From positions 6,297-70,296 of IMG/VR virus record IMGVR_UViG_3300010282_000007: 64,000 nucleotides of DNA; one strand, given 5' to 3'. Positions 27,801 to 48,765 of the stretch are shown here, one piece after another; position 1 is the stretch's first letter, and every line of letters begins with the position of its first letter. Made by a program: the position numbers and the translations under genes. This DNA is from a virus. Taxonomy: Duplodnaviria > Caudoviricetes. Below the pieces are notes generated by a model that had not been told where the DNA came from, searched no databases, and saw nothing but the letters and a program-made list of their open reading frames with translations.

Positions 27801-27811
27801 ATTCAATTATC

Positions 27812-29621: not shown

Positions 29622-29688
29622 GAAAGTTTTTGGCTGCAAGTATGTTGCAAATACTTTCAGCCGCATTATTCACTAAATCTTTTCAATT

Positions 29689-29994
29689 ATGAAGGCTATT
29701 CAAATTTTGGAATGTCTTTGCTATATGGGCAAAGATTCAGAAAAGTTTAACATCATCGACTTTGAAGATGAAAACATTGACGAACGTCAACAGTTTTGCG
29801 AAGACTATTTCGGGAAGAAGATGGCGGAAGACTTTCCTTCGGGAAAGTATTTCTACTATTGGACAGACGAATACCTGCAAGTACTTGAGAAAGGGCATGG
29901 AGAAAGTTTTGCTCCAGATTGTTTCATTCTCACAGGCGACTACGACAATGATGGGATTCCATGTGCTATCAACTTCTACAAAATTGAAGATTGA
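29689..29994 (+). CDS. Hypothetical acidic protein, 101 aa
   Basis: Cassette ORF. Confidence 0.7.
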   Translation: MKAIQILECLCYMGKDSEKFNIIDFEDENIDERQQFCEDYFGKKMAEDFPSGKYFYYWTDEYLQVLEKGHGESFAPDCFILTGDYDNDGIPCAINFYKIED

Positions 29995-30227
29995 ATTTCT
30001 CTACAAACTTTCAAGAGTCCTGAAAACTCTTGAGAGTACGATAAATATGTACGTTTTAAAAGTTTTACGATTAGGAAAAAATCTATAGTGTTTGGAAAAG
30101 AAAGTGGCTTTGTTCATCTGTGTTTTGCCACGAAAGTAAAACAATTATTTCTATGGGCATTTTATCGGAAACTTTGCATGAATTAAGTTTTGTGCAAAGT
30201 ACTATTATTCACCAAAACATTTCAATT

Positions 30228-30380
30228 ATGAGAACAAGAGTTTATAGAAAAGTTCGCTTCGGCACAAAGTATGTGCTGGCTGCAAGTACGGAGAAAGTTG
30301 ATGAAAAGTTATCTTTGTGGGTGAACCCTATAAAGACAACTGCTCGGAGAAAAACGCTTTCAGACCTTTGGAGCAACTAA
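30228..30380 (+). CDS. Hypothetical basic protein, 50 aa
   Basis: Hairpin plus tattcacc leader, ATG at 30228. Confidence 0.5.
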   Translation: MRTRVYRKVRFGTKYVLAASTEKVDEKLSLWVNPIKTTARRKTLSDLWSN

Positions 30381-30441
30381 CTTTTCCCTCAATCTTTTTG
30401 CGAAAGGTTGAGGGTTCTAATTTATTCACACATTAAACAAT

Positions 30442-31149
30442 TTGGACTATGAAAGAAGTAAAAATCTTTATTCGTTCGATGAGTTGAGCGAAGAAGTAAG
30501 AAAGTCGCTCGTTGAAGCGCAAAGTTTTGAGCTCGGCTACGATGTTATGGAATGCTATGCATCCGACTACGAAGGTACGCTAAAAAAGTTTGAGGAATTG
30601 ATGGGAATAAAAGTCAACTACAGCGTTGACTATTGCGCCTATAGTTTCTCTTTCAAGTTTACAACTGAAAGCTACCTTATGGGAGATTGGAACGGAGAAA
30701 CTTTCTACGAGGATGAAATCTGCGGAAAACTTTTGCGCAGGTGGCTGAATCGAGAGTTTTTACCGTATGCTCTTCCCGCAAAACATTTTGTCAACTACGA
30801 TGCCGGCTATAATAGAGAAAAAAGGCATTGGAACAAACAACGCTGGTCAAAAATTCAGCGTGAAAGTTTCGACAACTGCCCTCTCACTGGAATGTGCTAT
30901 GACTACGATGTTTTAGAACCAATCATCAAGCGTCTCTCCAAGCCTATCCCCAAAAACTTTTCCTTAAAGGATATGGTTAATGAAAGTCTTGACGCACTTT
31001 TCTCCGCGTGGCACAAAGAGTATGAATATTGGTGCGACAATGAAGACAACTGTCTCGAAGAAGAGTTTAGGCGTAGGCATGAAGATGAACTTTTCTTTGC
31101 AGACGGAATAATCTTTAACGGAACTTTCGACGAGGCAGATGCTGCCTGA
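30442..31149 (+). CDS. Hypothetical acidic protein, about 233 aa; start ambiguous, possible early frameshift
   Basis: The canonical leader points to ATG 30449, which is out of frame with the body (LYSFDELSEE...). Confidence 0.65.
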   Translation: MDYERSKNLYSFDELSEEVRKSLVEAQSFELGYDVMECYASDYEGTLKKFEELMGIKVNYSVDYCAYSFSFKFTTESYLMGDWNGETFYEDEICGKLLRRWLNREFLPYALPAKHFVNYDAGYNREKRHWNKQRWSKIQRESFDNCPLTGMCYDYDVLEPIIKRLSKPIPKNFSLKDMVNESLDALFSAWHKEYEYWCDNEDNCLEEEFRRRHEDELFFADGIIFNGTFDEADAA

Positions 31150-31211
31150 CTCTGAAACTTTCAGGGGAATTGCTTTCCCTTGGAAGTACGATTAATCTAA
31201 ACTTTACAATT

Positions 31212-31667
31212 ATGGAAACTATTGTCATTAATGATTTTATTGGCTACGATGCCATGGAAGAGAAATTAAGAGAACTTTACAAAGATTCCCTTGATGAATG
31301 TGAGGCCGCAAAGTACGAAAGTACGATTGAAACTTATGCGGAAATCAATGCAGGCCAAATCGTTGAAGATATGCACAAATACGTCCACCAAAAATCTACA
31401 AAGATTTACGGAAATTTCTGCAACATTCGTGAAGACTGGGAATATTTGCCTGAGTTTATCGGCTCGGAAGTTCAGCCGTGGGGAAAGTTTGACGATGTTG
31501 TAAAAAGCATCGACGATGGAACTATTTCCGAAGAAGACCTTGAAAAGTTTCAAACTTGGTGCCGCGACTGGTTCTTCACTGCATTCGGAACTTATGGGCT
31601 GTGCTACAATTTCCAAACTCTCATTTCAGAATTAGAGTGGGAGGAAGAACACGAAAAGACAGCCTAA
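31212..31667 (+). CDS. Hypothetical acidic protein, 151 aa
   Basis: Cassette ORF. Confidence 0.75.
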   Translation: METIVINDFIGYDAMEEKLRELYKDSLDECEAAKYESTIETYAEINAGQIVEDMHKYVHQKSTKIYGNFCNIREDWEYLPEFIGSEVQPWGKFDDVVKSIDDGTISEEDLEKFQTWCRDWFFTAFGTYGLCYNFQTLISELEWEEEHEKTA

Positions 31668-31730
31668 AACTTTCGCTCTCGCTCTTTTTGCAAAGGGCGG
31701 GAGTACGAATAACTTTTAAATTTTGTAATT

Positions 31731-32192
31731 ATGGATTTTGAAACATTCTGCAAAAGAACTGCGAAGTTTCTCGGTTTGGAACTTTGCGAAATGAGTAGTA
31801 AGTACCCCAAGCGTGCCAAAACAATGGTTGCGACAAGGGAGAACCCGAACCCAAAGTTTCAGGTTGACTTTACGGATTGTTCGCGCGATGAAGGCCACAA
31901 AGATTATTATGCTGAAGTTTACGGAAACGTAAACGGCCACAATATTTTGCTCGGCTACATTGGCTATGAAAAGATTGACGAACAGTTCGGCAACTTTGAG
32001 CATTGGGAGTGCCAAGTTTCTCCAGAAGGTCGCTACAACGAAGAGTTTATGCCTATAAATTCTGCTGGCGAAGAAGTTGACGGAGAACTTTGGTCGTACT
32101 ACTATGGCGGCTCTTTGAAGAGGGCTTGCAAGAGTTTTCTCAAAGGTGGCGCAATGACGAACCCCACACGCAAACCAAAAAGAGTGTGGTAA
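31731..32192 (+). CDS. Hypothetical protein, 153 aa
   Basis: Cassette ORF. Confidence 0.75.
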   Translation: MDFETFCKRTAKFLGLELCEMSSKYPKRAKTMVATRENPNPKFQVDFTDCSRDEGHKDYYAEVYGNVNGHNILLGYIGYEKIDEQFGNFEHWECQVSPEGRYNEEFMPINSAGEEVDGELWSYYYGGSLKRACKSFLKGGAMTNPTRKPKRVW

Positions 32193-32317
32193 AAACTTTG
32201 TCAGGGAGTTGCATCCCTGACATTGACAAATCAAAGAAAAATTTGGTTTAATGTGTTCGGGCGTGGTCGGTTTGCTATCGGCTGCGCCTTCTAAGTTTCA
32301 CAAAAAAGTATTCAATT

Positions 32318-32542
32318 ATGAAAGAGTTCGAGAAAAATTATCGTGCTTGGTTCCAAGTATGCAAAGATAACCAAGCATTTAGTGAGGAAGGACGAAAAGT
32401 TTTGAGAAAGTTGTTCGACTCCGTACCGAAGGAAATTGATTTCGGCAAATTTATGGACGCATTTCTCTCGCGTCCAACTTGGAATCTTGAAGAAAGTACG
32501 AAATGGATAATGAACAAAATGAAAGAACTTTCCGCTGCCTAA
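32318..32542 (+). CDS. Hypothetical protein, 74 aa
   Basis: Cassette ORF. Confidence 0.65.
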   Translation: MKEFEKNYRAWFQVCKDNQAFSEEGRKVLRKLFDSVPKEIDFGKFMDAFLSRPTWNLEESTKWIMNKMKELSAA

Positions 32543-32605
32543 ATTTATTCCACAATCTTTCTACAAAGGTTGTGGGAGCAAATAACAACCAAAACTTTAT
32601 GAATT

Positions 32606-32818
32606 ATGGAATACTACGAAGACTCTTTCCAAAGTTATCAAGAATCACAAAACACTTGTGCATTCAACTATTATGCAGTCATGTGCGACGGTGTGGAATG
32701 GTTCTCTGGAAGTTACGAGGCATGCGTTGATGAAATTGATGAACTTGTCAGAGAGAATGCCCCCTATGCAAAAAAGTCTGACTTCTCAATAGAAACTCGT
32801 TACTCAAGCGGCTACTAA
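32606..32818 (+). CDS. Hypothetical acidic protein, 70 aa
   Basis: Cassette ORF. Confidence 0.65.
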   Translation: MEYYEDSFQSYQESQNTCAFNYYAVMCDGVEWFSGSYEACVDEIDELVRENAPYAKKSDFSIETRYSSGY

Positions 32819-32890
32819 ACTTTTTCAGAGCGCAGACTCCTTGCAAAGTTTGCGCTTGCAAGTTTTTTAACCCTATAAATAAATTCAATT

Positions 32891-33340
32891 ATGAAAGAAA
32901 TGAAAAAAGAAGTCGTCACCAAGACAACAAAGACGGTGTTCGTCGCAAATGACGGAACAGAGTTTAACGACAAACTTGAGTGCGAAAAGTACGAGAAATC
33001 AGCCAAAGGGGTTTTGTACGCAAAGTATGCACCCATGGTTGTCAAGGCGACTAACGAAGAAAAACTTTTCTCCGTCGGCTGCTGCGATGACGATGTTGAA
33101 ATTGTGAAAATTGAAACTCAAGAGGATGCAGACCTTGTTCTCCAAATCTTTTTGCTTGAAAATCCGAATTATGCAAAAGAAGAAAATAAAGAAAATTTGC
33201 AGAAAGAGAAAGAGAGCATCGATGCCGCAATCGGAGACTTTCTGATTGTATGTCGCGGCTATGCCCATGACGGATTTTGGCTTTATGGATCCAGAGAGTC
33301 TATCATCGACGCTTTCAACAAAAAGTTTGAAAAACTCTAA
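32891..33340 (+). CDS. Hypothetical protein, 149 aa
   Basis: Cassette ORF (FVANDGTEFNDKLECEKYE). Confidence 0.75.
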   Translation: MKEMKKEVVTKTTKTVFVANDGTEFNDKLECEKYEKSAKGVLYAKYAPMVVKATNEEKLFSVGCCDDDVEIVKIETQEDADLVLQIFLLENPNYAKEENKENLQKEKESIDAAIGDFLIVCRGYAHDGFWLYGSRESIIDAFNKKFEKL

Positions 33341-33404
33341 TCTTTTCGGGCGCACTCTTTTTACCAAGGGTGCGCTTGCTGATTATTCACCAAAATATTT
33401 GATT

Positions 33405-33902
33405 ATGGCAACTTTACAAGATTATGGCATCCGCTTCATTTCTCATGGAAATTGGAGCGACCCCGAAATTGAGTGGGAAAAGTCTTTGCACCAAAAAGTT
33501 TTGTTCAACTATTGGGACGTTGCAGAATGCACCGACTACGAAACTCTTGACCACACGGACGATATTGACCTACAAGAATTGGTCGCACAACTTTGGGCAT
33601 TAACTCCAAGCGGCTACGCTCGTCCGCGCATAGATTATGAGTGGGAAGTTTCTAATGGAAGTTTCTATGAAAACTATGACGATGCAGACTACTACGAAGA
33701 GTACAAACTTTCAGACAAAGAAGATTTTGTGCTGCATAGTACAGGCCAGGCACTCAAGCAAGCTCTGCAATACTTGGAAGACCACAACGACCATGATGCT
33801 TGCATTCAAATCTTTCGCTGTGACGGCGGAAACAGAAAACTTGTCGCAAATTACACGCTGCAAGGCTCAACGCTGAAAGATGTGATGTGCTACAAAAAGT
33901 AA
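33405..33902 (+). CDS. Hypothetical acidic protein, 165 aa
   Basis: Cassette ORF, ATG at 33405. Confidence 0.75.
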   Translation: MATLQDYGIRFISHGNWSDPEIEWEKSLHQKVLFNYWDVAECTDYETLDHTDDIDLQELVAQLWALTPSGYARPRIDYEWEVSNGSFYENYDDADYYEEYKLSDKEDFVLHSTGQALKQALQYLEDHNDHDACIQIFRCDGGNRKLVANYTLQGSTLKDVMCYKK

Positions 33903-33980
33903 TTCTCTTCTACGGCTGGAAAGTACGAAAACTTTCCGGCTGACGATTTCATTCACTTTATTAACTAAACAAATTCAATT

Positions 33981-34382
33981 ATGAAAAAGATTATTGTTTC
34001 AATGGTAGCCATCATGGTGGTATGTATTTTCACCTCCTGCACTGGGGAAAGTTTCTTAGATGAAACAGACCCTATTGTGGAGCAAACCGTAAATCGAACC
34101 ACTTTTGACGAAGAGTCGGAGTGGAAAATCGAAATCATGAGAGTTATGCACAACATTGTGGAAGTTCACAAAGACTTCGAGAACTTTCAGGCCGCTCTTC
34201 CCAAAAGTTTGTGCGGAAAAATGATTTCGGGAAAGTTCAACTTTCTCGAAGGTTTAGAAATCATGCGCTATTGGTACGAAAACGATGAATGTTATGATGT
34301 TTTGTGTGAGTGGCCTGAGTGGGACACTTTCATAGAAATGTTGCCAACAAGCCTTCTCAATCAGTTTGAATTTTACCTTTGA
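33981..34382 (+). CDS. Putative lipoprotein, 133 aa
   Basis: MKKIIVSMVAIMVVCIFTS-C signal peptide/lipobox; acidic residues after the Cys. Confidence 0.6.
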   Translation: MKKIIVSMVAIMVVCIFTSCTGESFLDETDPIVEQTVNRTTFDEESEWKIEIMRVMHNIVEVHKDFENFQAALPKSLCGKMISGKFNFLEGLEIMRYWYENDECYDVLCEWPEWDTFIEMLPTSLLNQFEFYL

Positions 34383-34452
34383 CGGCCGCAAACAAAGTCG
34401 GGAGTTTTGCCTCTCCCGATTTTGCTAAACATTAACCCAAAACTTTTAAATT

Positions 34453-34782
34453 ATGGAAATAAGTAAAATAAAGTACGGCGGAAGTTACATTGATGTAATC
34501 TTCACTGGCCCATGCTATTTCTTTTTCTCTTCTTTTTGCGGCTACATAGCCATTGCAGAAAGAACCGAAGAAAGCATCGAAAAAGCCGGCTCCGGCTGGC
34601 AAGAGTTTGTAATCTATTCGGGTAACAAGCGAATGCCCGACGGGATAGAAAAAGATTGGTTCGAATTGGCCGAAAAGTTCATAAGAAGACAAGAGTGTAA
34701 ATTTGTCAAGACAAAAGTAAATTTCATTGAGAAAATTGCTGACCTTGACAAGTGCCATGTAACTGTCTCCTACGAACTATAA
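34453..34782 (+). CDS. Hypothetical protein, 109 aa
   Basis: Cassette ORF. Confidence 0.7.
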   Translation: MEISKIKYGGSYIDVIFTGPCYFFFSSFCGYIAIAERTEESIEKAGSGWQEFVIYSGNKRMPDGIEKDWFELAEKFIRRQECKFVKTKVNFIEKIADLDKCHVTVSYEL

Positions 34783-34845
34783 CAAAATCCCTCTGAAACC
34801 TAAACTTTCAGGGGGAAACTATTATTCACCAATTATTCAAAAGTT

Positions 34846-35238
34846 ATGGATGCAAAACAAACTAAAAAAGAAATGTTCTTAAAGTTGGCAACCGACATCA
34901 AGAACTTGGGTTACAAAGTTTTCGTAAGGTACAACGAATGGGGCCAACATTACGGATGGGTTGTAAATGAAAAGGACGAAATCGGCTATTTTCAGTTTGA
35001 TGACTTTGGTTGTGGGATAATTTTTTCAACGGTCCACAAACCATGCTATGAGTTTGGCACAGGCTTCTCTCTTGACGATTGGGATGAAGGCCACAGAACT
35101 TTCACGCGAGAAATTGTCGATAGATGTTTCATTCATCACCCAAGTTGGGCGAGAGGAAAACTTTCTCAAATCCGCAAGTACACGGCAACGGAATACTTTG
35201 CAAACTATTGGGACAAAGAAAACGTTATCGAACTCTAA
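34846..35238 (+). CDS. Hypothetical protein, 130 aa
   Basis: Cassette ORF. Confidence 0.7.
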   Translation: MDAKQTKKEMFLKLATDIKNLGYKVFVRYNEWGQHYGWVVNEKDEIGYFQFDDFGCGIIFSTVHKPCYEFGTGFSLDDWDEGHRTFTREIVDRCFIHHPSWARGKLSQIRKYTATEYFANYWDKENVIEL

Positions 35239-35297
35239 GACTTTCGGGCGAACTATCCTCGCCCAAAGTTTCAAACTTTAACCAAAACTTTTGAATT

Positions 35298-35645
35298 ATG
35301 AGACTAAAAGAAATTAAAACCATTGACGTGTTTACTCGTTGGTGGTATGACGAAGAGAACGGCAACCCCTATTATGCACGAAAGATTGTCGTAAACATCG
35401 GCACGGAGAGTGAGAAAACTTTCACCGTCAGGATGACGTGGGGAACCATCTACGGAATAGAGAGCGACCACATCGAAAGATTGCTCAAACTCCCGAAATC
35501 CGTAAGTTTCACGAACCACACGATATTCAGGCAAATCAACTACAGAAGTTGCGAAGTGAAGGCCATCCGCTATACCTACCATCCCGAAAAGAGAATCTAC
35601 AAGGAGGAAGGTCTGCGCAATCCTGAACGTTTCAGGAACTTCTAA
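35298..35645 (+). CDS. Hypothetical protein, 115 aa
   Basis: Cassette ORF. Confidence 0.7.
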   Translation: MRLKEIKTIDVFTRWWYDEENGNPYYARKIVVNIGTESEKTFTVRMTWGTIYGIESDHIERLLKLPKSVSFTNHTIFRQINYRSCEVKAIRYTYHPEKRIYKEEGLRNPERFRNF

Positions 35646-35718
35646 CAAAAACTTTCGGAGTCTTGCATAACTCCGAAGGTTGCAAACTTTTATGTTTCAC
35701 TTTTAAATTAATTCAATT

Positions 35719-36687
35719 ATGACAAATTTCATTATCGGTAGAAACTCTACCCAAGTTGCAACTGCTCCATCATTAAAGGAGTCAACCATCGTTGACAACA
35801 CAAAGTTCTTTGACTGGAACGAGAAAGGCTACGGCACTCAGCCGCTGACTTTGGAGATGCTTGAAAGAACTCAGCACGAAAATGATGTGCAGGGGAATCC
35901 CCTCAAAGGAATCTATCACTACGCGCTCATTAACGAAGTTCTTGGCATGTGTCAAGAGTTTGGCTATCAGACGGAAATCTATGACTTGTTCGCAGCGCAG
36001 AACCGTGACAAGAACATGCCTGGAGTTACCGTCATTCGTCAGGTTGAGGAACAGTTCGGAGAAAAGGCCGTTGAGGCACACATCCTTCGCCGTGTCTTCG
36101 CAAACATTCGCATCGCAAACTTTGACGATGCAGAGACTACGACGGGACTTGCAATCGCCTATCATCAGAAGGGAATCCAAGTTGGTTTTGGCCCACAGGT
36201 GAAAATCTGTCACAACCAGTGCATGCTCAGTCCAGAACTTTACATCGCATCCTATGGCGACAAGGGGACTGGCCGTGGCGGTGGCTCTGACATCGAAACA
36301 ATTCTTTCTACTGTTCGCACATGGCTCATGAATGCACAAAACATCATCGAGACAGACCGCAGAAAGATTGAGCGACTGAAGAACATCGAAGTTCCAGCAG
36401 ACCAAATGTTGATGATTATCGGCGCACTCACAGCCATGAGAGTTAAGGCCGATACGCAGCGCAAAACTATCCGCGCCAACATGACTTATCCGCTGAACCA
36501 GTCGCAGATAACTATCTTCACCGAAGACATGTTAGAGGCATACGAATTGCGCGAGAGAGTCACTGCATGGGACATCTACAACTCGGCAACTGAAATGTAT
36601 AAGGCAAACCGCATGGACATCCCGCAACTTTTGCCACAGAACCGTGCTATGGTGGCATTCCTCAACGACTGGTTCCAACTTGGCTAA
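35719..36687 (+). CDS. DUF932-like protein, 322 aa
   Basis: GIQVGFGPQVKICHNQCML and TAWDIYNSATE resemble the DUF932 ...C.N and T.W..YN..T motifs. Confidence 0.55.
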   Translation: MTNFIIGRNSTQVATAPSLKESTIVDNTKFFDWNEKGYGTQPLTLEMLERTQHENDVQGNPLKGIYHYALINEVLGMCQEFGYQTEIYDLFAAQNRDKNMPGVTVIRQVEEQFGEKAVEAHILRRVFANIRIANFDDAETTTGLAIAYHQKGIQVGFGPQVKICHNQCMLSPELYIASYGDKGTGRGGGSDIETILSTVRTWLMNAQNIIETDRRKIERLKNIEVPADQMLMIIGALTAMRVKADTQRKTIRANMTYPLNQSQITIFTEDMLEAYELRERVTAWDIYNSATEMYKANRMDIPQLLPQNRAMVAFLNDWFQLG

Positions 36688-36759
36688 ACTTTTCTCTCTT
36701 CGAACCTGTGAGAACTTGAAACTCTCACGGGTTTCAAATATTCACCAAACTATCAAATT

Positions 36760-37181: not shown

Positions 37182-37247
37182 AGTCTTTCCCATTCCGTAG
37201 TCATTTGCCTGGCTATGGGATGCAATTCACCAAAAAATGTATTGTAT

Positions 37248-41141: not shown

Positions 41142-41882
41142 ATGGAAAGAAAAGAATATTTAGAGAGAGTTATGGATGTAAAGAACGACATCCTGGGCGA
41201 AATCCGCGAAATCCTTGGAGAGGGGAACACTCATTACTACGCCAACCTTTTCTATGTTCACTACGTGGACGGAGAGGTAGCTGCAACAGAAATCTGCGCA
41301 GCCGTTGAAGTGGAAAAATCAGGCTCAATTATCTTCCATGTCAGGCCGGAGGGTGAAAAGGAAACCGAAATGGTTTGCGGAGAATCAGTCTTCGAGTACG
41401 AACCAGAATCATTCATGGACATCCTCTTCAACCTGAAAAAGGAAGTTCGTGAAGAAAAACTTTCCCGACTGCGAAAGATTGTCGAAGACGCTAATGGAGA
41501 GATAAAGTTTGACGGAAACTTTCAGTTTGACGGAAACGATGGCGAGACAATCATTTTAGACTGCCACCTCAATGCCATCAAACTTGTGGATGGTGTTCTC
41601 CACATTTCCAACACCTTTGAAGGAGATAAGTATGTCAACGAAGAATCTTTCATCGACGAAGAGTCTCTCGACGCGGTGATTGAATACGTAAAGAAGACCG
41701 TCACCAAGACGTACACGGCAAGAATTGCGGGAACTTTCACACGAACTTTTCAGGTGACTGCCTCCTCCTATGAAAAAGCAATGGAACTTGCAAAGAAAGA
41801 ATGGGAAAACCATCCCCTTGAGCCAGCGGACGCAAATGGTTATGACATAACCTTGCATAACTATTTCCCGCCGAAAAAGTAA
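41142..41882 (+). CDS. Hypothetical acidic protein, 246 aa (possible internal repeat plus short C-terminal domain)
   Basis: Cassette ORF. Confidence 0.75.
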   Translation: MERKEYLERVMDVKNDILGEIREILGEGNTHYYANLFYVHYVDGEVAATEICAAVEVEKSGSIIFHVRPEGEKETEMVCGESVFEYEPESFMDILFNLKKEVREEKLSRLRKIVEDANGEIKFDGNFQFDGNDGETIILDCHLNAIKLVDGVLHISNTFEGDKYVNEESFIDEESLDAVIEYVKKTVTKTYTARIAGTFTRTFQVTASSYEKAMELAKKEWENHPLEPADANGYDITLHNYFPPKK

Positions 41883-41941
41883 TCACAAGACCATTTCGAT
41901 ATTATCCTCGAAATGGTCACAAACTTTTAAACAAAACAATT

Positions 41942-42142
41942 ATGGTAGCATTAACAAACATTCTTAGCAACTACTTTGGCATCGTTAAGATGTTCAACGA
42001 AAACGGCGAACCCACGATTGCAGCGCAGAGAGCCGCAGGAAAACTCTTAGACTTACTCTACGACTGCGATGATATGGGGCTTTGCAAAGTCCCCGAAGAC
42101 GTGGAAGAGCAACTTGAACTAATAATTGGTGTTCCAGTGTAA
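41942..42142 (+). CDS. Hypothetical protein, 66 aa
   Basis: Cassette ORF. Confidence 0.6.
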   Translation: MVALTNILSNYFGIVKMFNENGEPTIAAQRAAGKLLDLLYDCDDMGLCKVPEDVEEQLELIIGVPV

Positions 42143-42208
42143 GTCTTAATCCTATGCCATCTTGCAATGGTGTAGGATGCAAACTATTCAACAATAAACT
42201 ATTTAATT

Positions 42209-42640
42209 ATGGAAATCAAAAGTTATATGAATGACGGCGCATGCTGGCAAGCACAGTGCGCACTCGCCTACATCAGAGCAAATGTCGAGAGCATTTTGGA
42301 AGCATCGTGGTATGATGAAATGAGAAGTTACCTCGCGCAAATCGACATAGGTCGCTTTGAGAATTGCAGAGAACAAGGCTACATCTTCTCAATCAGAAAC
42401 TATCCCAATTACGACAAGCAAGGGAACTGGGTAGTCTATGAACATCGCAACGTGGACCATGCAATGGTCTTCTTCTTCAATGGGAAAACAATAAACACGC
42501 CTACGCTCGATGAAGTCTGCGACAAGATGGATAATGGTGCATACTGCACAAAAAAAGATTTCGGCTACGACATCCCCAAAATGCTTGAGTGGCTGAAAAA
42601 GGACATGACGGAATGGGTTGAAGATGCCTACGCCGTGTAA
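42209..42640 (+). CDS. Hypothetical protein, 143 aa
   Basis: Cassette ORF. Confidence 0.7.
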   Translation: MEIKSYMNDGACWQAQCALAYIRANVESILEASWYDEMRSYLAQIDIGRFENCREQGYIFSIRNYPNYDKQGNWVVYEHRNVDHAMVFFFNGKTINTPTLDEVCDKMDNGAYCTKKDFGYDIPKMLEWLKKDMTEWVEDAYAV

Positions 42641-42705
42641 ACTTTTCGCCTGGCAAGTTGTTGCGAAACTTGCTGGGTGCAAAACATTAACCAATCATTA
42701 GTATT

Positions 42706-42975
42706 ATGTATTTTGACGGAAATTTATCAGTTGAGTTCACCTATGATGGTGAAAAATTTCATAAAACTGTTTGCCCAACTTTCGCTATTGAAGACCAAGA
42801 ACTAAAAGATTGTTGGAACTACGTCTTTTACAATGACAACGAAACCGTAAAGTTTACTCTTGTCGGCGAATACGACGAAAACGACAATCTTTCAACAGTG
42901 GACGCACTTTTTATCAAGGCTCTTTGCTTTTGGAATGGGTGCGAAACAATCATTGATGACATCGACATCGTGTAA
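42706..42975 (+). CDS. Hypothetical acidic protein, 89 aa
   Basis: Cassette ORF. Confidence 0.65.
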   Translation: MYFDGNLSVEFTYDGEKFHKTVCPTFAIEDQELKDCWNYVFYNDNETVKFTLVGEYDENDNLSTVDALFIKALCFWNGCETIIDDIDIV

Positions 42976-43045
42976 ATCCTATTACTTGGCAAGTTTTCAA
43001 TAACTTGCTGGGTGCAAACATTATTCACAACTAAAACCAATCATT

Positions 43046-43300
43046 ATGGAAAGTTTAACACAAGAATTGGCGATGGACTTCATGCATCGCAACGACCCAA
43101 ACTTCTACGCAAACGACATTGACTTCGCCATCTTCATTGGAGAGTTGTCGGTCAGCGTGGAAAGTATTTGGTATTCCGACAAGGACGATAAAATCTACAT
43201 TCATTGTGGATGCGAGGAATTTGAGGGAGACCTTGACATTGACTCCCTATCGGAGAAGAACCAAAAGATTTTGCGGAAAGTTTTCCGTGAACACATCTAA
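43046..43300 (+). CDS. Hypothetical acidic protein, 84 aa
   Basis: Cassette ORF. Confidence 0.65.
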   Translation: MESLTQELAMDFMHRNDPNFYANDIDFAIFIGELSVSVESIWYSDKDDKIYIHCGCEEFEGDLDIDSLSEKNQKILRKVFREHI

Positions 43301-43368
43301 AGTCTTCATTTCCGAATGTGGTTTGCCGCCACGTTTGGAAGCAACTATTCACCAATAAAAATACAATT

Positions 43369-43668
43369 ATGAACAAAGCAAACATTCTCGCCATTAAGGC
43401 ATGGGTCTATTTCACTTTCAATTATTACGACCCGAAAGATTTCATTCGATACATTTGCGATAGAAACGGTCGTCCCGACCTTGAAAAGCATTTCCTTGAT
43501 AGTTTCAACGAAATCTACGAAAGAGTAGGGAGCAAGGCCGTGATGAATGTGTTTTACTGCTACCTCAGTCCAACAAATCAGGAAGCGTTGGTGGAGTATG
43601 CAATCAAAGTATATGCCCCGAATGGCCTTTACCTCACAGAAGAAGACAGGAAACTCCTTGGCCTTTAG
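43369..43668 (+). CDS. Hypothetical protein, 99 aa
   Basis: Cassette ORF. Confidence 0.65.
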   Translation: MNKANILAIKAWVYFTFNYYDPKDFIRYICDRNGRPDLEKHFLDSFNEIYERVGSKAVMNVFYCYLSPTNQEALVEYAIKVYAPNGLYLTEEDRKLLGL

Positions 43669-43739
43669 CCAAACGAGCAAGGTGCATTTTGCGATGTTCC
43701 TTGCCACAAAACATTATTCACCAATTAATCTATTCAATT

Positions 43740-44924
43740 ATGACAGACTTAGAGAAAAACAAGGCCATCTACAAGGCTATGAAAGAAATCGCAAACGAAG
43801 TCTTTGCAAACGCGGCGAAAGCCAGCGAAAGTTTGCGGGCGTACATCAAGGAAAACGGAAACCCCGTGTCGCTTGCCGACATCATTAAGAGAAATTCCGC
43901 AGTGTACTGCCAAATTGCAGACGTTACGCCATTCAACCGCCAAACAAAGGAGGGTATCAGAACAATCGAGGTCGATACATTCTCCTGCGAGTTCCCTCCG
44001 ATGCAAGTTTTCGACCTGCTCAAGACCTTCAAAAGTCTTGCAAAGGAAAGTGGCGATGTGGTTTTCACCTACGAAGAGGAGATAAAGAACGAGTTTGTTG
44101 GCACAATCGAACTGACATTCGAGAAACCAGCAAACGCGAAAGCGTTCTGCAACTTCGCCGACAAAGACCCAAATAGAGATATGCTCGGTTATATCCTCGT
44201 TGAAGTCAACACGGAAAGCAAAGACATCAGCATTGTGGCAAGCAATGGTGCAATCTTGGCCGTAATGTCGCAAAACCCACAAAGCGTATGGAACACTCCA
44301 GACGATTTGGATGCAAACTATCAGGCTCTTTTCAGTCCGGTAGATTGGAAGCGTATTTGCGACCATGCCAAAAAGTTTGGCTCGGTGAGTTTCAAACTCT
44401 ACCGAAAGAACGGAGAAGAGAACCAAGACACGATGATTGCCGACATCAATGGGAATGCAATAAAGTCTTCGCAGATTAATTGCAGATACCCGAACTGGCG
44501 CAGCGTCCTCCCGAAAGGAAAGTACAAGCATTTCAAAATCAAGGAGGAAGATTCCAAGGCAGCACAAAAATGGCTCAAGTCTTTCAAGGCAGAACCTTAT
44601 GAAACGGTGAATGTCTCATTCTACAAAGGTTCTGACTTGGTGTATTTCGACTACAAAGACTTAGACTTTGGAATTGAGAAATCAATCTCATTCCGTCTTG
44701 AAGAGCCATCTGACGAAACTATTGGGGTGTTCTACAGGCTCAACATGCTTCGCTCAACGCTTGCTACTGGTTTCTACATCGTACACCACGAGAGAGCAAC
44801 TTACTTGGACTCTCCGCTGGCCGACATCTTGCTTATCATGCCGTGCCTCTCCGACGATAACATATACGTGCGAAAAGTCGAGGAAAGAGAAGTTTGCATC
44901 GAGACAGAAGTCATTGCCGCCTAA
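43740..44924 (+). CDS. DNA polymerase III beta (sliding clamp)-like protein, 394 aa
   Basis: FADKDPNRDMLGYILVEV..IVASNGAILAV and INCRYPNWRSVLPK resemble the beta-clamp central-domain motifs (A..D..R..L.G..; VATDGHRLA; FPDYRRVIP). Confidence 0.55.
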   Translation: MTDLEKNKAIYKAMKEIANEVFANAAKASESLRAYIKENGNPVSLADIIKRNSAVYCQIADVTPFNRQTKEGIRTIEVDTFSCEFPPMQVFDLLKTFKSLAKESGDVVFTYEEEIKNEFVGTIELTFEKPANAKAFCNFADKDPNRDMLGYILVEVNTESKDISIVASNGAILAVMSQNPQSVWNTPDDLDANYQALFSPVDWKRICDHAKKFGSVSFKLYRKNGEENQDTMIADINGNAIKSSQINCRYPNWRSVLPKGKYKHFKIKEEDSKAAQKWLKSFKAEPYETVNVSFYKGSDLVYFDYKDLDFGIEKSISFRLEEPSDETIGVFYRLNMLRSTLATGFYIVHHERATYLDSPLADILLIMPCLSDDNIYVRKVEEREVCIETEVIAA

Positions 44925-45026
44925 TTGGCCAACAACACATGTCACACCCTGCAAATGTGGCATGTGGCAAACAATATTCACAAACTTTTATCGTTATTAT
45001 GATATGTGTCATTAAACCAAAAAATT

Positions 45027-45314
45027 ATGGAAAATAAGAAAGTAACTATTATTGCGACTGACAAAATTGGGCGCACGGAATCAATTAAATTCATCTTTCC
45101 GACCAACTTGGCAGACCGACTTTTCAAGGCAGCGGGAATGACCTATCCCGATGGAAGTCCTTGTTCTGAACTTCAAAAAGAACTGAATGAATTGTACGAC
45201 AACTATAAGATGGGATGGAAACCTGAAATCTCAACTTATCAGTATCGCAAACTCAAAAGTTTCTTCAACCTAATCTACAATAAGTTCTACAATTACAAAC
45301 TTACAATAGAATGA
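45027..45314 (+). CDS. Hypothetical protein, 95 aa
   Basis: ORF. Confidence 0.6.
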   Translation: MENKKVTIIATDKIGRTESIKFIFPTNLADRLFKAAGMTYPDGSPCSELQKELNELYDNYKMGWKPEISTYQYRKLKSFFNLIYNKFYNYKLTIE

Positions 45315-45553
45315 GCAAAAGAAAATTCATGCTCTGCAAATATCCCACGCAGGGTTTCGGAGAAAAAAGTGGAAAGTTCTATTTACTTGATATGTTCGGG
45401 AATAGGTACGACATTACTGACGAATATGACAAAGTGTTAGAGCAGATGGATAAGAGTGTTACAATCAATGGTGAAACTTTCTGCAAAGAAACAATTTCAG
45501 AATTAGTAGAAACACTACAAGTTCGGTACGATACCAGCATTGAAAACTGGTAG
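45311..45553 (+). CDS. Hypothetical protein, 80 aa
   Basis: ATGA overlap. Confidence 0.6.
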   Translation: MSKRKFMLCKYPTQGFGEKSGKFYLLDMFGNRYDITDEYDKVLEQMDKSVTINGETFCKETISELVETLQVRYDTSIENW

Positions 45554-45627
45554 TCTTTTGAGTGCATAGTCCTGACGAGTCTATGCACTTGCAACGCTTT
45601 TAGTTTTTAACCTACAAAATTCAAGTT

Positions 45628-45915
45628 ATGGGAAAAATATTCAAATTTAACTTTGAGGATTGCAAGTCCTTTGAGGACATCAAATTTGAAATCGAGTTTC
45701 AGCTGCATTTTGAAACCATCGTCACAGACGAAGAGGATGCCAAGCGACACTTTCAGGAGTGCGAAATCAAAGAGGATGTCGAGACGGAAACAATCTTCAG
45801 TAAGAATGTTCACATCGTCACAGAAGAAGGCGAAGAGATTTACTTTGTCCGCGTTTGCTGCCACTTTGTGCCAGGCTACGAAAGCGTGTATTCATACTCA
45901 ATAGCCTTGGAATGA
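45628..45915 (+). CDS. Hypothetical acidic protein, 95 aa
   Basis: Cassette ORF. Confidence 0.65.
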   Translation: MGKIFKFNFEDCKSFEDIKFEIEFQLHFETIVTDEEDAKRHFQECEIKEDVETETIFSKNVHIVTEEGEEIYFVRVCCHFVPGYESVYSYSIALE

Positions 45916-46151
45916 CAAAAGAAGAAGCGGCGGGCATTCCTGAACTGCAAATCCATCCAAATGGTATTGTGGAAGACGCATTCTTCTACAAACTTGCAAA
46001 GGCCGGAAAACTTTCCAAAGAAGAAGGTTCTGCGGCTGAAAAAAGGTTGGATCCTTCCGACCCTTGCTACCAAGGTGCGTTGTTTGTGGCCGACCTAATG
46101 CTCGAAAACCTCGAAAAGTACGGCGTGCCGTGCGTAGATTGGTGCGAGTAA
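45912..46151 (+). CDS. Hypothetical protein, 79 aa
   Basis: ATGA overlap. Confidence 0.6.
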   Translation: MTKEEAAGIPELQIHPNGIVEDAFFYKLAKAGKLSKEEGSAAEKRLDPSDPCYQGALFVADLMLENLEKYGVPCVDWCE

Positions 46152-46218
46152 TCTACAACCTTCGTTCTCTTTGCAAAGGACGAAGGTGCAAAGTTTACCA
46201 ACCATCAAATTGTTTATT

Positions 46219-46446
46219 ATGGATAGATTAGACATCTTTGACTTTCACGTCAACAACGTAGTGCGTCATGAGTTCGACACGCTTGAACACCTTCTCATTT
46301 ACCCAGATTTCAAGGAGGAAATCATAAGGCTTCGAGAAATCGACGAAATGCTTGAAAAACTTCGGGTAGATGTTCGGAAAAAGGCTTGGGATGAAAGAAA
46401 GGCGCGAGGGATGTTTGAAGAATTGTGGCAACCCAGGGGAAAGTAG
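46219..46446 (+). CDS. Hypothetical helical protein, 75 aa
   Basis: Cassette ORF. Confidence 0.6.
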   Translation: MDRLDIFDFHVNNVVRHEFDTLEHLLIYPDFKEEIIRLREIDEMLEKLRVDVRKKAWDERKARGMFEELWQPRGK

Positions 46447-46509
46447 CCGCGCAGCAACTTCCATTCTTTATGCAAAAGGATGGAAGTACGAATATTAATC
46501 AATCCAATT

Positions 46510-47712
46510 ATGAACGAACAGAAAATATCAAGAAAAGACATTGTGAAAGCCACGTTGCTTTCTTTTAAAGTATCATTCTACGACTTTGAAGAGATTGTTG
46601 GCATATCGCAAACCTTATACAAGTTCCGTCCGCAAATCGGAAACCGCATATCAAAGATACGCGGGCTGAAGGACGAATTTGCATCGGCTCTCGGCGTACC
46701 AAATGTCCGCATTATCGCTCCTATGACCGATGGGAGCGTCGGCATAGAGGTACCAAACAAACAAAGGGAAATTGTTCCAATATCCGACATTTTTGAAACA
46801 CCAGAGTTTCGGGATGCAGAAATGGCATTGCCATGCGCTATCGGAAGAACAGTCACCAACGAAATCTTCATCGCCGACCTCGCAAGGATGCCGCATCTTC
46901 TTGTGGCTGGCGCAACAGGTCAAGGAAAGTCCGTTGGTCTTAACGTCATGCTTATGTCTCTTCTACGGAAGAAAAAGCCAAGCGAATTAAAACTTGTGCT
47001 TATCGACCCGAAGAAAGTTGAATTGTCGGCATACGAAAAGATTGCACGGCCTTACATCACGCAAATGGAAGGTTTGCCGCCTGTCATAACGGAGGCAGAC
47101 CATGCCCAACTCATGCTCGATGGTCTTTGCAGACTTATGGAAAAGCGTTACACCATGCTCAACCAACTTGGCGCAAGGAACATCGAAGAATACAACGCAA
47201 GATGCATAGACAAGATGGAATACTACGTCATCGTCATTGACGAGTTCGGTGACCTTGTTATGCAATCGGGTAGGGAAATGGAGAGGCTTATCTGCCGCCT
47301 TGCACAAAAGGCGAGAGCGGTAGGCATGCACCTAATCATTTCAACCCAACGCCCTGACACGAAAGTTGTCACGGGCAACATCAAGGCAAACTTCCCGACG
47401 AGAATTGCCTTCCGCACCACAACAGGCGTTGACTCTCGCGTCATACTCGACCAAATGGGAGCGGAAAAACTTTTGGGAAACGGCGACATGCTCTATTTTT
47501 CGGGAGCAGAACTTGTCCGTGTGCAATGTGCATACGTCAGCACGAAAGAGGTGTGGGACACTTGCCAGCGGATAGGCGAACGTTATGCCGATGCTCGGCC
47601 CAAAGTTTTGCGTGTCATAAGACCGCAAGCAATAGACAACGATGACTATCATGCCATGTTCCAAGAAATTTTCAAAAGGTGCGGCATTAAAGGTCTTTAC
47701 TCTATGTATTAA
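46510..47712 (+). CDS. ftsK: FtsK/SpoIIIE-family DNA translocase motor (no TM or gamma domain), 400 aa
   Basis: MPHLLVAGATGQGKS, LIDPKKVEL, VIDEFGDL, KARAVGMHLIISTQRP, GAEKLLGNGDML. Confidence 0.92.
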   Translation: MNEQKISRKDIVKATLLSFKVSFYDFEEIVGISQTLYKFRPQIGNRISKIRGLKDEFASALGVPNVRIIAPMTDGSVGIEVPNKQREIVPISDIFETPEFRDAEMALPCAIGRTVTNEIFIADLARMPHLLVAGATGQGKSVGLNVMLMSLLRKKKPSELKLVLIDPKKVELSAYEKIARPYITQMEGLPPVITEADHAQLMLDGLCRLMEKRYTMLNQLGARNIEEYNARCIDKMEYYVIVIDEFGDLVMQSGREMERLICRLAQKARAVGMHLIISTQRPDTKVVTGNIKANFPTRIAFRTTTGVDSRVILDQMGAEKLLGNGDMLYFSGAELVRVQCAYVSTKEVWDTCQRIGERYADARPKVLRVIRPQAIDNDDYHAMFQEIFKRCGIKGLYSMY

Positions 47713-47848
47713 CGCCTCAAGGGGTTTGGCAAGTTGAATTGCCAGACCTTTCCATTCAGCTTCATAATTGAGCAATTTTTGGTGAACGGCGTATGGAATG
47801 CAATAATTCCATACGCTACAATTATGGTAAATTTAAAATGGAATAATT

Positions 47849-48685
47849 ATGAAAATTCTTAGTTTTGAACAAGAGTTCGAGAGAGCCTGCCCCGGAAACA
47901 TTCACCTCATACGCTATATGCGAGAGGCTATCGGGGTGAAGAATGTGGAGTGGGAACACCTCACGACACTCAACCTGTCGAAAGTACGGGAGCATATTTG
48001 CTCCATCGTTAATGGGAACAGCGCATGCACTTACCTTGCCATCATCAAGGCGTTCCTTGCAAAATACGCTGACGAGGGCATTGTGCCATGCAAGAACCCG
48101 AAGAAAGAGTTGAAGGCGAAGAAAATGCCGTCTCAAAACGTCTATCTCACCGAAGAAGAAATAGACCGTATCGAAAAATACGAGCCTAAAACTTTCTGCG
48201 AACAAGACGTTAAGGCAGCATTTCTTATCGAGTGCTACCTTGGTGCAAGACGGTCAGATGTCGAGAACCTGACGGACGAAAACATCGTTGATGGTCGTAT
48301 CGTGTATGTGTCAAAGAAAACGCATACCGAATGCTCCGTGCCTATCCATAAGAAACTTTTGAAATACTTGCAATACAAGCAGGTCGCGAAGAGGGCGCGT
48401 AGCGTTACGAACAGAACCATCCAGCGCATTTGCAAGGAAGTTGGAATAACGCAGGAGGTAAAGTTGTTCTACCACGGCAAATTGGTGAAGAGACCTAAGT
48501 ACGAGTTCGTGGGTTCGCACACCGCACGAAGGTCTTTCTGTTCAAACCTCGCAAAGAGAGGTGTTGACATCTACACCATCGCAGCACTCGCAGGGCACTC
48601 GCAGAATGTGACCATGACGCAGCGTTACGTTGTAACCGACATGGACAACATTTCTGACGAGGCAATGAACTTCTTCAATGGGTAA
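47849..48685 (+). CDS. Tyrosine recombinase (no arm-binding domain), 278 aa
   Basis: Catalytic set GARRSD (R), KKT (K), HTARRSF (HxxR), AGHS (H), TQRY (Y). Confidence 0.92.
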   Translation: MKILSFEQEFERACPGNIHLIRYMREAIGVKNVEWEHLTTLNLSKVREHICSIVNGNSACTYLAIIKAFLAKYADEGIVPCKNPKKELKAKKMPSQNVYLTEEEIDRIEKYEPKTFCEQDVKAAFLIECYLGARRSDVENLTDENIVDGRIVYVSKKTHTECSVPIHKKLLKYLQYKQVAKRARSVTNRTIQRICKEVGITQEVKLFYHGKLVKRPKYEFVGSHTARRSFCSNLAKRGVDIYTIAALAGHSQNVTMTQRYVVTDMDNISDEAMNFFNG

Positions 48686-48765
48686 GAAGCAAAAAAGTGG
48701 AGAGCGGCCTTGCAACCACTCCCCACGCAAATTTTAGTTTTGTCGTTGCCGAATTGTCGCAACTA

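Follow-up and report, generated by a model that had tools for sequence, protein, structure and literature searches.

The question raised by the present locus is what joins a row of small genes of unknown function to each other and whether the joint serves RNA, DNA, or both. The locus lies in a phage of gut or rumen Bacteroidales (IMG/VR record IMGVR_UViG_3300010282_000007), of which a stretch of 64 kb, hereafter the window, was analysed. About 40 tiny genes follow one another in a row, and each is joined to the next by the same hairpin-plus-leader connector. Each connector unit runs from a stop codon through a short A-rich flank, a hairpin of 8-16 bp, a short conserved box (AGTACGA, 'box A', or a degenerate form), a second box (TATTCACC or TTAACC, 'box B'), and an unstructured A-rich leader to the ATG. 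The array had first been noticed in a sequence-only reading, which placed it at 29628-48726 and described it as ending at a tyrosine recombinase.

The connector units and their genomic context

The array described by the sequence-only reading is real, although its limits had to be moved. A covariance model (CM) built from 30 spacers returned 42 hits in the window, of which 41 are on the + strand, all between 28597 and 46512; the single minus-strand hit (47763-47824, E 0.036) is weak. The array therefore starts about 1 kb before the position first proposed, and its last true unit precedes an FtsK-like gene and not the recombinase. The recombinase gene had been said to be flanked by hairpins of the same kind; hairpins are indeed present upstream (47720-47751 and 47788-47817) and, as read by eye, downstream (48697-48726), but they do not fit the unit model. 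The spacing is regular, in that 34 of the gene gaps between 29484 and 46510 measure 55-78 nt. The hairpins have 8-16 pairs (median 12) and loops of 3-12 nt, and sixteen loops contain TTGC, as had been stated. Strong + strand hairpins (score >= 24) number 46 in the region 28-48 kb, against 0-3 per 4 kb elsewhere. Table 1 shows the positions of the units and of the neighbouring features.

Table 1. Features of the array and its surroundings in the window (all on the + strand; CM scores in bits).
Position	Feature	Hairpin	CM score	Remarks
24722-25502	AT-rich control region			9 host-type -7 promoter motifs (TAnnTTTG; pattern scan), upstream of the first + strand gene (25575)
26360-26396	Canonical intrinsic terminator			14-bp stem plus T tract, after gene 25575-26345
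27025-27064	Canonical terminator			18-bp stem plus T8, after gene 26833-27018
27065-27811	ORF-poor, strongly structured stretch before the array			Rich in motif S (AAASTTT); fold -246 kcal/mol against -200 for the reverse complement, z -7.5
28597-28663	Unit 1 (weak)	28608-28636	20.9	
28802-29174	Cluster of 7 co-oriented box A copies at the head of the array			Spacings 68, 18, 21, 18, 61, 180 nt; conserved in relatives
29482-29552	Unit 2	29491-29522	34.3	Box A at the hairpin foot
29619-29691	Unit 3	29631-29663	53.1	TTGC loop
29992-30075	Unit 4	30007-30037	28.7	Box A
30162-30230	Unit 5	30171-30200	44.5	
30378-30451	Unit 6	30386-30414	52	
31147-31214	Unit 7	31157-31187	49.6	Box A
31665-31733	Unit 8	31675-31704	55.2	Box A
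32249-32320	Unit 9	32259-32289	42.7	Second hairpin at 32199-32222 in the same 131-nt spacer
32540-32608	Unit 10	32548-32577	56.6	
32816-32893	Unit 11	32828-32857	57.5	
33338-33407	Unit 12	33347-33378	57.7	
33900-33983	Unit 13	33913-33942	40.2	Box A in the loop
34380-34455	Unit 14	34393-34424	58.4	
34780-34848	Unit 15	34788-34816	35.2	
35236-35300	Unit 16	35242-35268	48	
35643-35721	Unit 17	35650-35681	46.5	
36685-36762	Unit 18	36699-36737	52	
37179-37250	Unit 19	37191-37222	37.3	
37443-37509	Unit 20	about 37452-37481	49.2	Imperfect hairpin (fold prediction)
37636-37703	Unit 21	37642-37673	35.5	
38064-38129	Unit 22	38072-38093	45.1	
38298-38365	Unit 23	38308-38340	47.8	
38587-38657	Unit 24	38599-38628	36.9	
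38761-38834	Unit 25	38774-38804	38.7	Hairpin overlaps the stop codon
39279-39348	Unit 26	39290-39319	58.2	Box A
39871-39940	Unit 27	39882-39913	46.4	
40220-40288	Unit 28	40229-40258	64.2	Box A; same hairpin (29 of 30 nt) follows a different gene in L013
40574-40645	Unit 29	40586-40615	59.6	Box A; left edge of the 96.6%-identity block shared with L013 lies here
40868-40936	Unit 30	40874-40905	21	
41079-41144	Unit 31	41082-41111	32.4	Hairpin overlaps the stop codon
41880-41944	Unit 32	41889-41918	45.1	
42140-42211	Unit 33	42149-42178	60.8	
42638-42708	Unit 34	42643-42683	56.7	
42973-43048	Unit 35	42983-43014	48.7	
43298-43371	Unit 36	43309-43341	51.7	Stays with its upstream gene where the gene order is swapped in L013
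43666-43742	Unit 37	43677-43704	48.4	
43740-44924	Sliding-clamp-like anchor gene			Counterpart in LoVEphage annotated as beta sliding clamp
44922-44998	Unit 38	44936-44966	32.2	
45551-45630	Unit 39	45556-45594	36.1	
46149-46221	Unit 40	46158-46187	56.7	
46444-46512	Unit 41 (last)	46457-46487	47.6	Box A; before the FtsK-like gene
46510-47712	FtsK/SpoIIIE-like ATPase (anchor gene)			
47720-47817	Two hairpins before the recombinase gene			Not members of the unit family
47849-48685	Xer-like tyrosine recombinase, 278 aa			Conserved catalytic R, K, H, R, H and Y; at the distal end of the array in every genome examined

The evidence supports sense-strand structures. All 11 consensus pairs of the model show compensatory changes among units, and orthologous hairpins in the relatives L013, L002 and L003 keep their pairing through compensatory changes. 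With symmetric scoring, the non-Watson-Crick positions of the stems comprise 49 G.T against 15 A.C (binomial p 2e-5), and in 116 distinct hairpins of other contigs the corresponding figures are 162 against 33 (p 1e-21). Only 1 of 56 strong + strand hairpins has a T tail, while two canonical T-tract terminators lie upstream of the array in the same phage. The leader is predicted to be unpaired in nearly every short spacer. No host-type -33/-7 promoter was found in the connectors, whereas nine -7 motifs cluster at 24.7-25.5 kb.

The window belongs to a LoVEphage-related Bacteroidales phage, and the same architecture (a tandem box-A cluster, then the array, then a small Xer-like recombinase) occurs in at least 45 viral contigs, including five genomes rated 99-100% complete. 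The same connectors occur in the relatives L013 (30), L005 (20), L004 (14), L002, L003 and L060, and in the complete genomes G001 (28) and G003 (15), always co-oriented with the genes.

Exchange of single genes at the connectors

Related phages differ by whole genes, which are gained, lost and swapped singly at the connectors. The arrays are mosaic around a few anchor genes, and cassette homologues are shared among many contigs. Single-cassette indels lie inside blocks that are otherwise 90-97% identical. Breakpoints fall in connector windows 44% of the time against 11% expected, with peaks at the stop codon and 5' flank, at the leader and at the ATG, and with a trough over the hairpin. In addition, 31 clean indels, most of them in the arrays, have 6-58 nt of junction microhomology in leaders or 5' flanks. 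The junctions are found in the connectors on either side of the hairpin and not at one fixed point.

The sequence-only reading had offered two hypotheses, and its interpretation is supported in part. Its view that the hairpins are sense-strand structures and not ordinary terminators is supported by the G.U bias, the missing U tracts and the contrast with the two canonical terminators. Its first hypothesis, i.e. sites of RNA processing, stabilization or antitermination in one long transcript, remains the most likely class on sequence evidence alone, but the specific analogy with the RNase III sites of T7 is weak, because the stems are only 8-16 bp and perfect. Of its second hypothesis, shuffling sites resembling either PeSL elements or attC sites, the PeSL-like half is supported by the gene exchange between relatives, while the attC-like half is not. 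Its suggestion that the A-rich part may simply be the Bacteroidota-type initiation region is plausible, although box B is conserved across distant lineages more than that explanation alone requires.

Competing readings of the connector

The reading preferred here, with moderate confidence, is that the connector is a standard intercistronic RNA module, made of a non-terminating protective or insulating hairpin plus a leader without a Shine-Dalgarno site, whose conserved flanks also serve as homology arms for PeSL-like cassette shuffling. In this view the array is the hyperplastic accessory (probably early) gene region of the phage, in which roughly 45 small genes of unknown function are read as long polycistronic transcripts. 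The hairpin, placed 6-12 nt after each stop codon and lacking a U tract, would not terminate transcription but would cap and insulate the upstream cistron; it would block 3' exonucleases after any cut in the A/U-rich leader and stop coding sequence from pairing with that leader. The following 30-nt unstructured leader (box A, box B, A run, AATT-ATG) would give each gene the same start site. Box A, at the 3' foot of the hairpin and repeated in tandem at the head of the array, would be a polar signal read by an unidentified processing or anti-termination factor. The distribution, strand, pairing and covariation of the units, and the exchange of genes at them, are shown by the sequence comparisons, whereas polycistronic transcription, protection or insulation by the hairpin and the role of box A are inferred, without RNA evidence of any kind. 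Several findings sit uneasily with this reading. Both boxes are conserved across distant lineages more strongly than a passive hairpin and leader would need, and the tandem box-A cluster is not explained by stabilization or insulation. Box A also occurs six times on the + strand at 48.5-54.2 kb, antisense to minus-strand genes, which hints at a DNA-level reader. In the box-A lineages several junctions coincide with the box itself, where only 7-10 nt of homology is available, and that is short for homologous exchange. Moreover, the canonical terminators lie between the host-type promoters and the array, so that a promoter or an anti-termination step for the array is still missing.

An unlikely alternative is a true PeSL analogue, in which each hairpin ends the upstream transcript and boxes A and B form a compact promoter, read by host RNA polymerase redirected by an unidentified phage factor, so that each cassette is its own transcription unit. 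The boxes are polar with transcription and conserved across lineages, a tandem box-A cluster sits at the head of every array, and the array has no host-type promoters and lies behind two canonical terminators. However, the hairpins have no U tract, only about 30 nt separate the hairpin from the ATG, the spacing between the boxes varies from 0 to 6 nt, and 32 of the 41 window units lack exact box A. No RNA polymerase, sigma-like or activator-like protein was detected by Pfam, PHROGs, NCBIfam or fold search, and loop TTTG shows no fixed distance to box B.

Slightly more doubtful is an integron-like system, in which the top-strand hairpin plus the AGT|ACGA core would be a structure-specific recombination site, the tandem cluster an attI-like landing pad, and the conserved small Xer-like recombinase, or another enzyme, would excise and insert [leader-gene-hairpin] cassettes. 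In the five genomes rated 99-100% complete, and in one rated 88%, the array is always followed by a co-oriented homologue of the recombinase; at least five junctions in the box-A lineages lie at the box, with only 7-10 nt shared; and the cassettes are co-oriented and promoterless. On the other hand, crossovers also lie at the 5' flank, inside box B, at the ATG, and after a 14-nt extension of box A, and one hairpin block is shared in contexts that differ on both sides. Gene-boundary microhomology junctions occur in the hairpin-free minus-strand module as well. The recombinase scores 26 bits against the integron-integrase model, whose cut-off is 265, and has no extra domain, and LoVEphage-type relatives keep it in the same place without any hairpin units. 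The stems are perfect and show none of the unpaired extrahelical bases that mark attC sites, and the better-folding strand is the top strand. Site-specific recombination of the attC type is therefore not supported, but it is not excluded.

A reading built on processive anti-termination or processing signals is also improbable. Box A, as RNA or as the non-template DNA strand, might load a factor on the elongating polymerase at the head of the array and again after each hairpin, or it might mark where a dedicated endoribonuclease cuts the long transcript into single-gene mRNAs that end in a hairpin. The head-of-array cluster is followed by one box at the foot of many hairpins, the basal pairs (ACT...AGT) and the 3' flank are conserved while the stems vary, canonical terminators precede the array, and the structures fold on the sense strand. 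Nevertheless, no NusG-, N- or Q-like protein and no nuclease was recognized, exact box A is present in only 8-9 of the 41 window units, and a Prevotella rRNA leader shows no box A. Ordinary intrinsic terminators are very unlikely. In their favour are stable GC-containing hairpins directly after stop codons, but these have no U tract, while T-tract terminators exist in the same phage, and 41 terminators in series without promoters would silence the array.

Relation to known systems and meaning for phage evolution

No published description of the connector was found, but several systems share some of its properties. The PeSL (promoter-early stem-loop) mobile regulatory cassettes of T4-like phages (Arbiol et al. 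2010, PMC2839356; Comeau et al. 2014, PMC4122927) are likewise short composite intergenic elements (stem-loop plus conserved sequence plus start codon) between small genes of unknown function in a hyperplastic region; their stems contain G.T pairs, insertions, deletions and replacements between related phages map to them, and their conserved parts act as homology for shuffling. The present connectors differ in having no host-type promoter, a hairpin that always sits directly after the stop codon, a leader without a Shine-Dalgarno site, an extra conserved box A with a tandem cluster at the head of the array, and a much higher and more regular density (41 units in 18 kb); mini-circles have not been shown. 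Integron cassette arrays also consist of co-oriented, promoterless, single-gene cassettes, each ending in a hairpin-forming site conserved in structure rather than in sequence, and are linked to a tyrosine recombinase; some junctions here lie, as there, at the 3' foot of the hairpin. The present array, though, has no IntI-type integrase, no R/L box anatomy or extrahelical bases, hairpins of about 30 nt against 57-141 nt for attC, better folding of the top and not the bottom strand, variable crossover positions, and a recombinase at its far end that is also present in relatives without hairpins. Intercistronic RNA hairpins that stabilize or delimit cistrons, such as the early RNase III sites of T7 and the REP elements of E. 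coli operons, are sense-strand hairpins between genes of a polycistronic unit, placed after stop codons and without a terminator U tract. The present stems are too short and too perfect for classical RNase III sites, and unlike REP elements they carry a fixed 3' box and a fixed leader; they are confined to one phage module, and no cleavage or stabilization data exist for them. Finally, the linker or boundary sequences of the modular theory of phage evolution (Susskind and Botstein; boundary sequences in lambdoid phages) are short conserved sequences at gene boundaries that let unrelated genes be exchanged by homologous recombination, whereas here the linkers are explicit, dense, structured and shared by dozens of genomes.

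At the DNA level, then, the conserved flanks on both sides of the variable hairpin act as portable homology, at which related phages insert, delete and replace single genes, as PeSL elements do in T4-like phages. This makes the array a widespread and apparently undescribed example of phage gene shuffling.

The phage, its host and the structure of the connectors

The window, 64 kb of a 70.3-kb IMG/VR virus record, encodes a large terminase, an SPP1-type portal, a major capsid protein, a tape-measure protein of at least 2949 aa, a D5-type primase and a DnaB-type helicase. The terminase is 49% identical to that of Bacteroides phage LoVEphage and of Bacteroides and Phocaeicola temperate phages. 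A two-box DNA pattern, followed by strand-polar counts of box A, picks out contigs of Bacteroidales, Prevotella and Porphyromonadaceae genomes assembled from metagenomes, and the host is therefore a gut or rumen member of Bacteroidales. From an AT-rich control region, about 50 small + strand genes run to a clamp-like gene, an FtsK-like gene and a gene for a 278-aa Xer-like recombinase. LoVEphage has the same gene order, but its genes are tightly packed and it has no hairpin units. In one part of the window (see table) the + strand is strongly A+C-rich whatever the gene direction, with AT skew up to 0.32 and GC skew of -0.31; as a result the minus-strand D5-type primase gene has a G/T-rich sense strand and its antisense frame is also open.

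A covariance model built from 30 spacers finds 41 units, all on the + strand and all within the array, whereas the other 46 kb give only one weak minus-strand hit; the array of hairpin-linked genes noticed in a sequence-only reading is thus real. Thirty-four gene gaps are 55–78 nt long. Each unit reads: stop codon; about 10 nt ending in AAACT; a hairpin of 8–16 pairs with a loop of 3–12 nt; a 3' flank with an invariant C, which is the exact heptamer AGTACGA (box A) in 8 units; TATTCACC or TTAACC (box B); an A run; a T run; and then AATT-ATG. All 11 modelled pairs carry compensatory changes and, with symmetric scoring, the stems hold 49 G.T and 15 A.C positions. Only 1 of 56 strong hairpins has a T tail, whereas two textbook T-tract terminators lie just upstream of the array. 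The leader is predicted to be unpaired in almost every short spacer, and sixteen loops contain TTGC, as the sequence-only reading had stated. Box B (TATTCACC), present in most leaders, appears to be the exact reverse complement of the universally conserved 16S rRNA stretch targeted by the 1369F primer; an 8-mer would match somewhere in a 1.5-kb rRNA about 2% of the time by chance, and no role is claimed for this match. A variant leader ending in GGACT-ATG recurs before four genes, one of them a 23-codon hydrophobic ORF, and a 235-aa gene appears to start at TTG, because the nearby ATG at 30450 is out of frame and meets a stop.

Rfam returned 0 matches at the gathering score and ARAGORN found 0 tRNAs, while Pfam, PHROGs and NCBIfam gave no informative family for nearly all array proteins. 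For two conserved head-of-array proteins, a PDB profile search gave nothing usable and the protein atlas nothing, and their AlphaFold models (pLDDT 76 and 73) had no Foldseek PDB match better than E 0.29.

Coordinates of features in the window and in related contigs (L013 and L242 are related contigs that carry the tandem box-A cluster)
Sequence	Position	Strand	Feature
Window	16000-24100		Stretch whose + strand is A+C-rich
Window	22630-24117	-	D5-type primase gene
Window	24.7-25.5 kb		AT-rich control region with nine host-type -7 promoter motifs
Window	25575-26345		Gene for a conserved head-of-array protein
Window	26000-36000		Region of AAASTTT enrichment
L013	2000-8000		Region of AAASTTT enrichment
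Window	27065-27811		750-nt stretch without a convincing ORF, between a canonical terminator and the first array gene
Window	28158-28622		Gene for a conserved head-of-array protein; homologues precede the box-A cluster
Window	28661-28879		Gene whose homologues precede the box-A cluster; its last codons overlap one copy
Window	28597-46512	+	Array of 41 units found by the covariance model
Window	28802-29174		Tandem, co-oriented box A repeats (16-21 nt period) at the head of the array
L013	3729-4109		Tandem, co-oriented box A repeats
L242	848-972		Tandem, co-oriented box A repeats
Window	30442-31149; also 29197, 29550, 38655		235-aa gene with apparent TTG start; variant leader ending in GGACT-ATG
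Window	29550-29621		23-codon hydrophobic ORF
Window	30204-30211, 40264-40271, 40622-40629		Examples of box B in leaders
Window	40229		Hairpin whose 5' flank is the left edge of the block shared with L013
Window	40259-40612		Extra [leader-gene-hairpin] segment relative to L013
Window	48498, 49491, 50644, 52303, 54050, 54220	+	Six copies of box A antisense to, or outside, the array
Window	49998-50804	-	Gene containing an exact 12-nt match to the cluster repeat

Distribution of the connectors and gene exchange between relatives

Protein-based searches found units in the related contigs L013 (30), L005 (20), L004 (14), L002, L003 and L060, and none in LoVEphage-type loci or in unrelated phages that share only the 322-aa protein. 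The recombinase used as a single-protein query found only one relative, whereas an alignment query found 22. A 14-mer scan of viral contigs gave mostly chance hits, but the two-box DNA pattern found at least 45 viral contigs with five or more strand-polar copies of box A. Five genomes rated 99–100% complete (87–108 kb) share the terminase (46–75% identity) and the recombinase, and all show the same layout, namely a tandem box-A cluster, then 10–20 kb of array, then the recombinase, all co-oriented. The recombinase is present in all genomes that carry the array and are rated 88% complete or more, but also in the hairpin-free LoVEphage clade. The complete genomes G001 and G003 have 28 and 15 model hits, respectively. 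In 116 distinct hairpins from these contigs, G.U outnumbers A.C by 162 to 33, and box A is strand-polar everywhere (23 to 0 in L013, 14 to 0 in L002 and 12 to 0 in L005). Arrays of this kind also occur inside Bacteroidales, Prevotella and Porphyromonadaceae genome contigs (an 87-kb record classed as provirus, G008, and contigs L345, L319 and L329), so some family members are integrated prophages that could be induced. A megablast of an array of the human-gut lineage against GenBank phages gave no match.

The arrays of relatives keep a few anchor genes in order and differ in almost everything between them, and homologues of single window cassettes turn up in many other arrays. Recent events are informative. 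Inside a block that is 96.6% identical between the window and L013, the window has exactly one extra [leader-gene-hairpin] segment; the crossover lies inside box A, the left edge of the block is at the 5' flank of a hairpin, and its right edge is inside a gene. L002 carries one extra cassette relative to L003, again joined inside box A, and both edges of their shared 322-aa gene block end at box A. One hairpin, together with a 14-nt extension of box A, is shared by three contigs in which the genes on both sides differ. In a well-sampled human-gut lineage, 31 clean indels, most within the arrays, have junction microhomologies of 6–58 nt, which lie in box B and the leader, at the ATG, or at the stop codon and 5' flank. 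Over 593 breakpoints, 44% fall in connector windows against 11% expected, with three peaks (stop codon and 5' flank, leader, ATG) and a trough over the hairpin itself. Similar gene-boundary junctions occur in the hairpin-free minus-strand module of those phages. The connectors are therefore the preferred seams, and the crossover point moves to wherever conserved sequence is available, which fits homology-guided exchange better than a single-site enzyme.

The probable role in the transcript and the possible signal at the head of the array

The sense-strand bias, the position right after stop codons, the missing U tracts and the unstructured leader point to a function in the transcript. A host-type early promoter, which in Bacteroidota comprises -33 TTTG and -7 TAnnTTTG, was looked for in the connectors and rejected: no -7 motif is present and TTTG shows no fixed spacing to box B. 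No phage polymerase or sigma-like protein was recognised. The array is therefore probably transcribed as long units. What the comparisons show directly is the structure, strand and distribution of the connectors and the exchange of genes at them; that the hairpin protects and insulates each upstream cistron, and that the leader provides a uniform start site without a Shine-Dalgarno sequence, are both inferences, and any statement here on transcription, termination or cleavage at the hairpins, or on circular cassette intermediates, is likewise inferred from sequence alone. The stretch without a convincing ORF before the array folds much better than shuffles (z -7.5) and better on the + strand, and could hold the array's promoter or a leader RNA. 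The heptamer AAASTTT (S = C or G) is about 8-fold enriched, with 145 copies in the window, about 100 of them between 26 and 44 kb; AAAGTTT occurs 35 times inside ORFs, in all three frames, where about 3 are expected. This enrichment is strong in the window, L013, L002 and L003, and weak in L004, L005 and L060. The heptamer resembles the A-tract plus TTTG upstream part of a Prevotella rRNA promoter (contig L408), but no matching -7 elements follow it.

Box A is not explained by this reading. It is conserved across lineages, follows the direction of transcription, and is repeated 3–9 times at 16–21 nt spacing at the head of every array, and it looks like the site of an unidentified reader. That reader could be a processing or anti-termination factor acting on RNA, or a DNA-binding protein; the second possibility is kept open by the six + strand copies lying antisense to genes at 48.5–54.2 kb, where about 0.3 are expected and none has a hairpin. 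An analogy with the boxA of rRNA leaders was rejected, since a Prevotella rRNA leader has no box A, and a KOPS-like role for the FtsK-like motor was dropped, because the motif is absent from half of the genome and does not invert.

Alternative readings and comparison with described systems

The interpretation offered in the sequence-only reading, which was either RNA sites in one long transcript or PeSL- or attC-like shuffling sites, is partly supported. The closest described system is the PeSL of T4-like phages (PMC2839356, PMC4122927). As in PeSL cassettes, a stem-loop lies inside a short conserved intergenic element upstream of a small gene in a hyperplastic region, and indel and replacement breakpoints between related phages coincide with the elements. 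The genomic role and the link to indels are the same, but the make-up differs: the present element has no promoter, a fixed post-stop hairpin, box A, and a leader without a Shine-Dalgarno site. No description of these elements was found in the LoVEphage paper, which mentions no hairpins, or in a text search for box A together with Bacteroides and phage, which returned only unrelated primer sequences. A true PeSL analogue, that is a terminator-plus-promoter cassette, would need a phage-specific promoter in 30 nt and termination without U tracts.

An integron-like, structure-specific system is suggested by the constant recombinase at the end of the array and by junctions at box A. However, it conflicts with the variable crossover positions, which lie at the 5' flank, box A, box B, the ATG and beyond box A rather than at one fixed point, and with the presence of the enzyme in hairpin-free relatives. 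The recombinase is of Xer type and lacks the integron-specific extra domain: it scores 26 bits against the integron-integrase model TIGR02249, whose cut-off is 265, its best matches are Xer models, and its 278 aa contain no insert. Nor do the sites show attC anatomy (R''-L''/L'-R' boxes with RYYYAAC...GTTRRRY cores, extrahelical bases and bottom-strand folding), since the stems are short and perfect with flanks AAACT and AGT-ACGA, and the top strand is favoured both in the window and in the other contigs. It remains possible, although unlikely, that the connectors are the sites of a phage-borne, integron-like gene-capture system unrelated to IntI and attC. In this view, a top-strand DNA hairpin with an AGT|ACGA core would be cut and rejoined by the family's small Xer-like recombinase, or by an unrecognised enzyme, and the tandem core cluster would act as the landing pad, moving single accessory genes among Bacteroidales phages. 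The stems, regular and 8–16 bp long, do not match T7-type RNase III processing sites, which have irregular double-stranded stems of roughly 20 bp or longer. Ordinary intrinsic terminators, which require a U tract after a GC-rich hairpin, are excluded in practice.

The unexplained box A and its tandem cluster point to a reader protein that has not been identified. If the preferred reading is correct, the connectors offer a defined cis element for studying mRNA punctuation and translation starts in Bacteroidota, a simple sequence tag (hairpin plus box A) for finding the fast-evolving, probably anti-defence, gene pool of these phages in metagenomes, and ready-made insulator and leader parts for Bacteroides genetics. 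They would also be the clearest natural example so far of 'standard connectors' for phage genes, in that one 65-nt module would both punctuate a long transcript in a host phylum that does not use Shine-Dalgarno sites and supply the seams at which dozens of related gut and rumen phages exchange single accessory genes.
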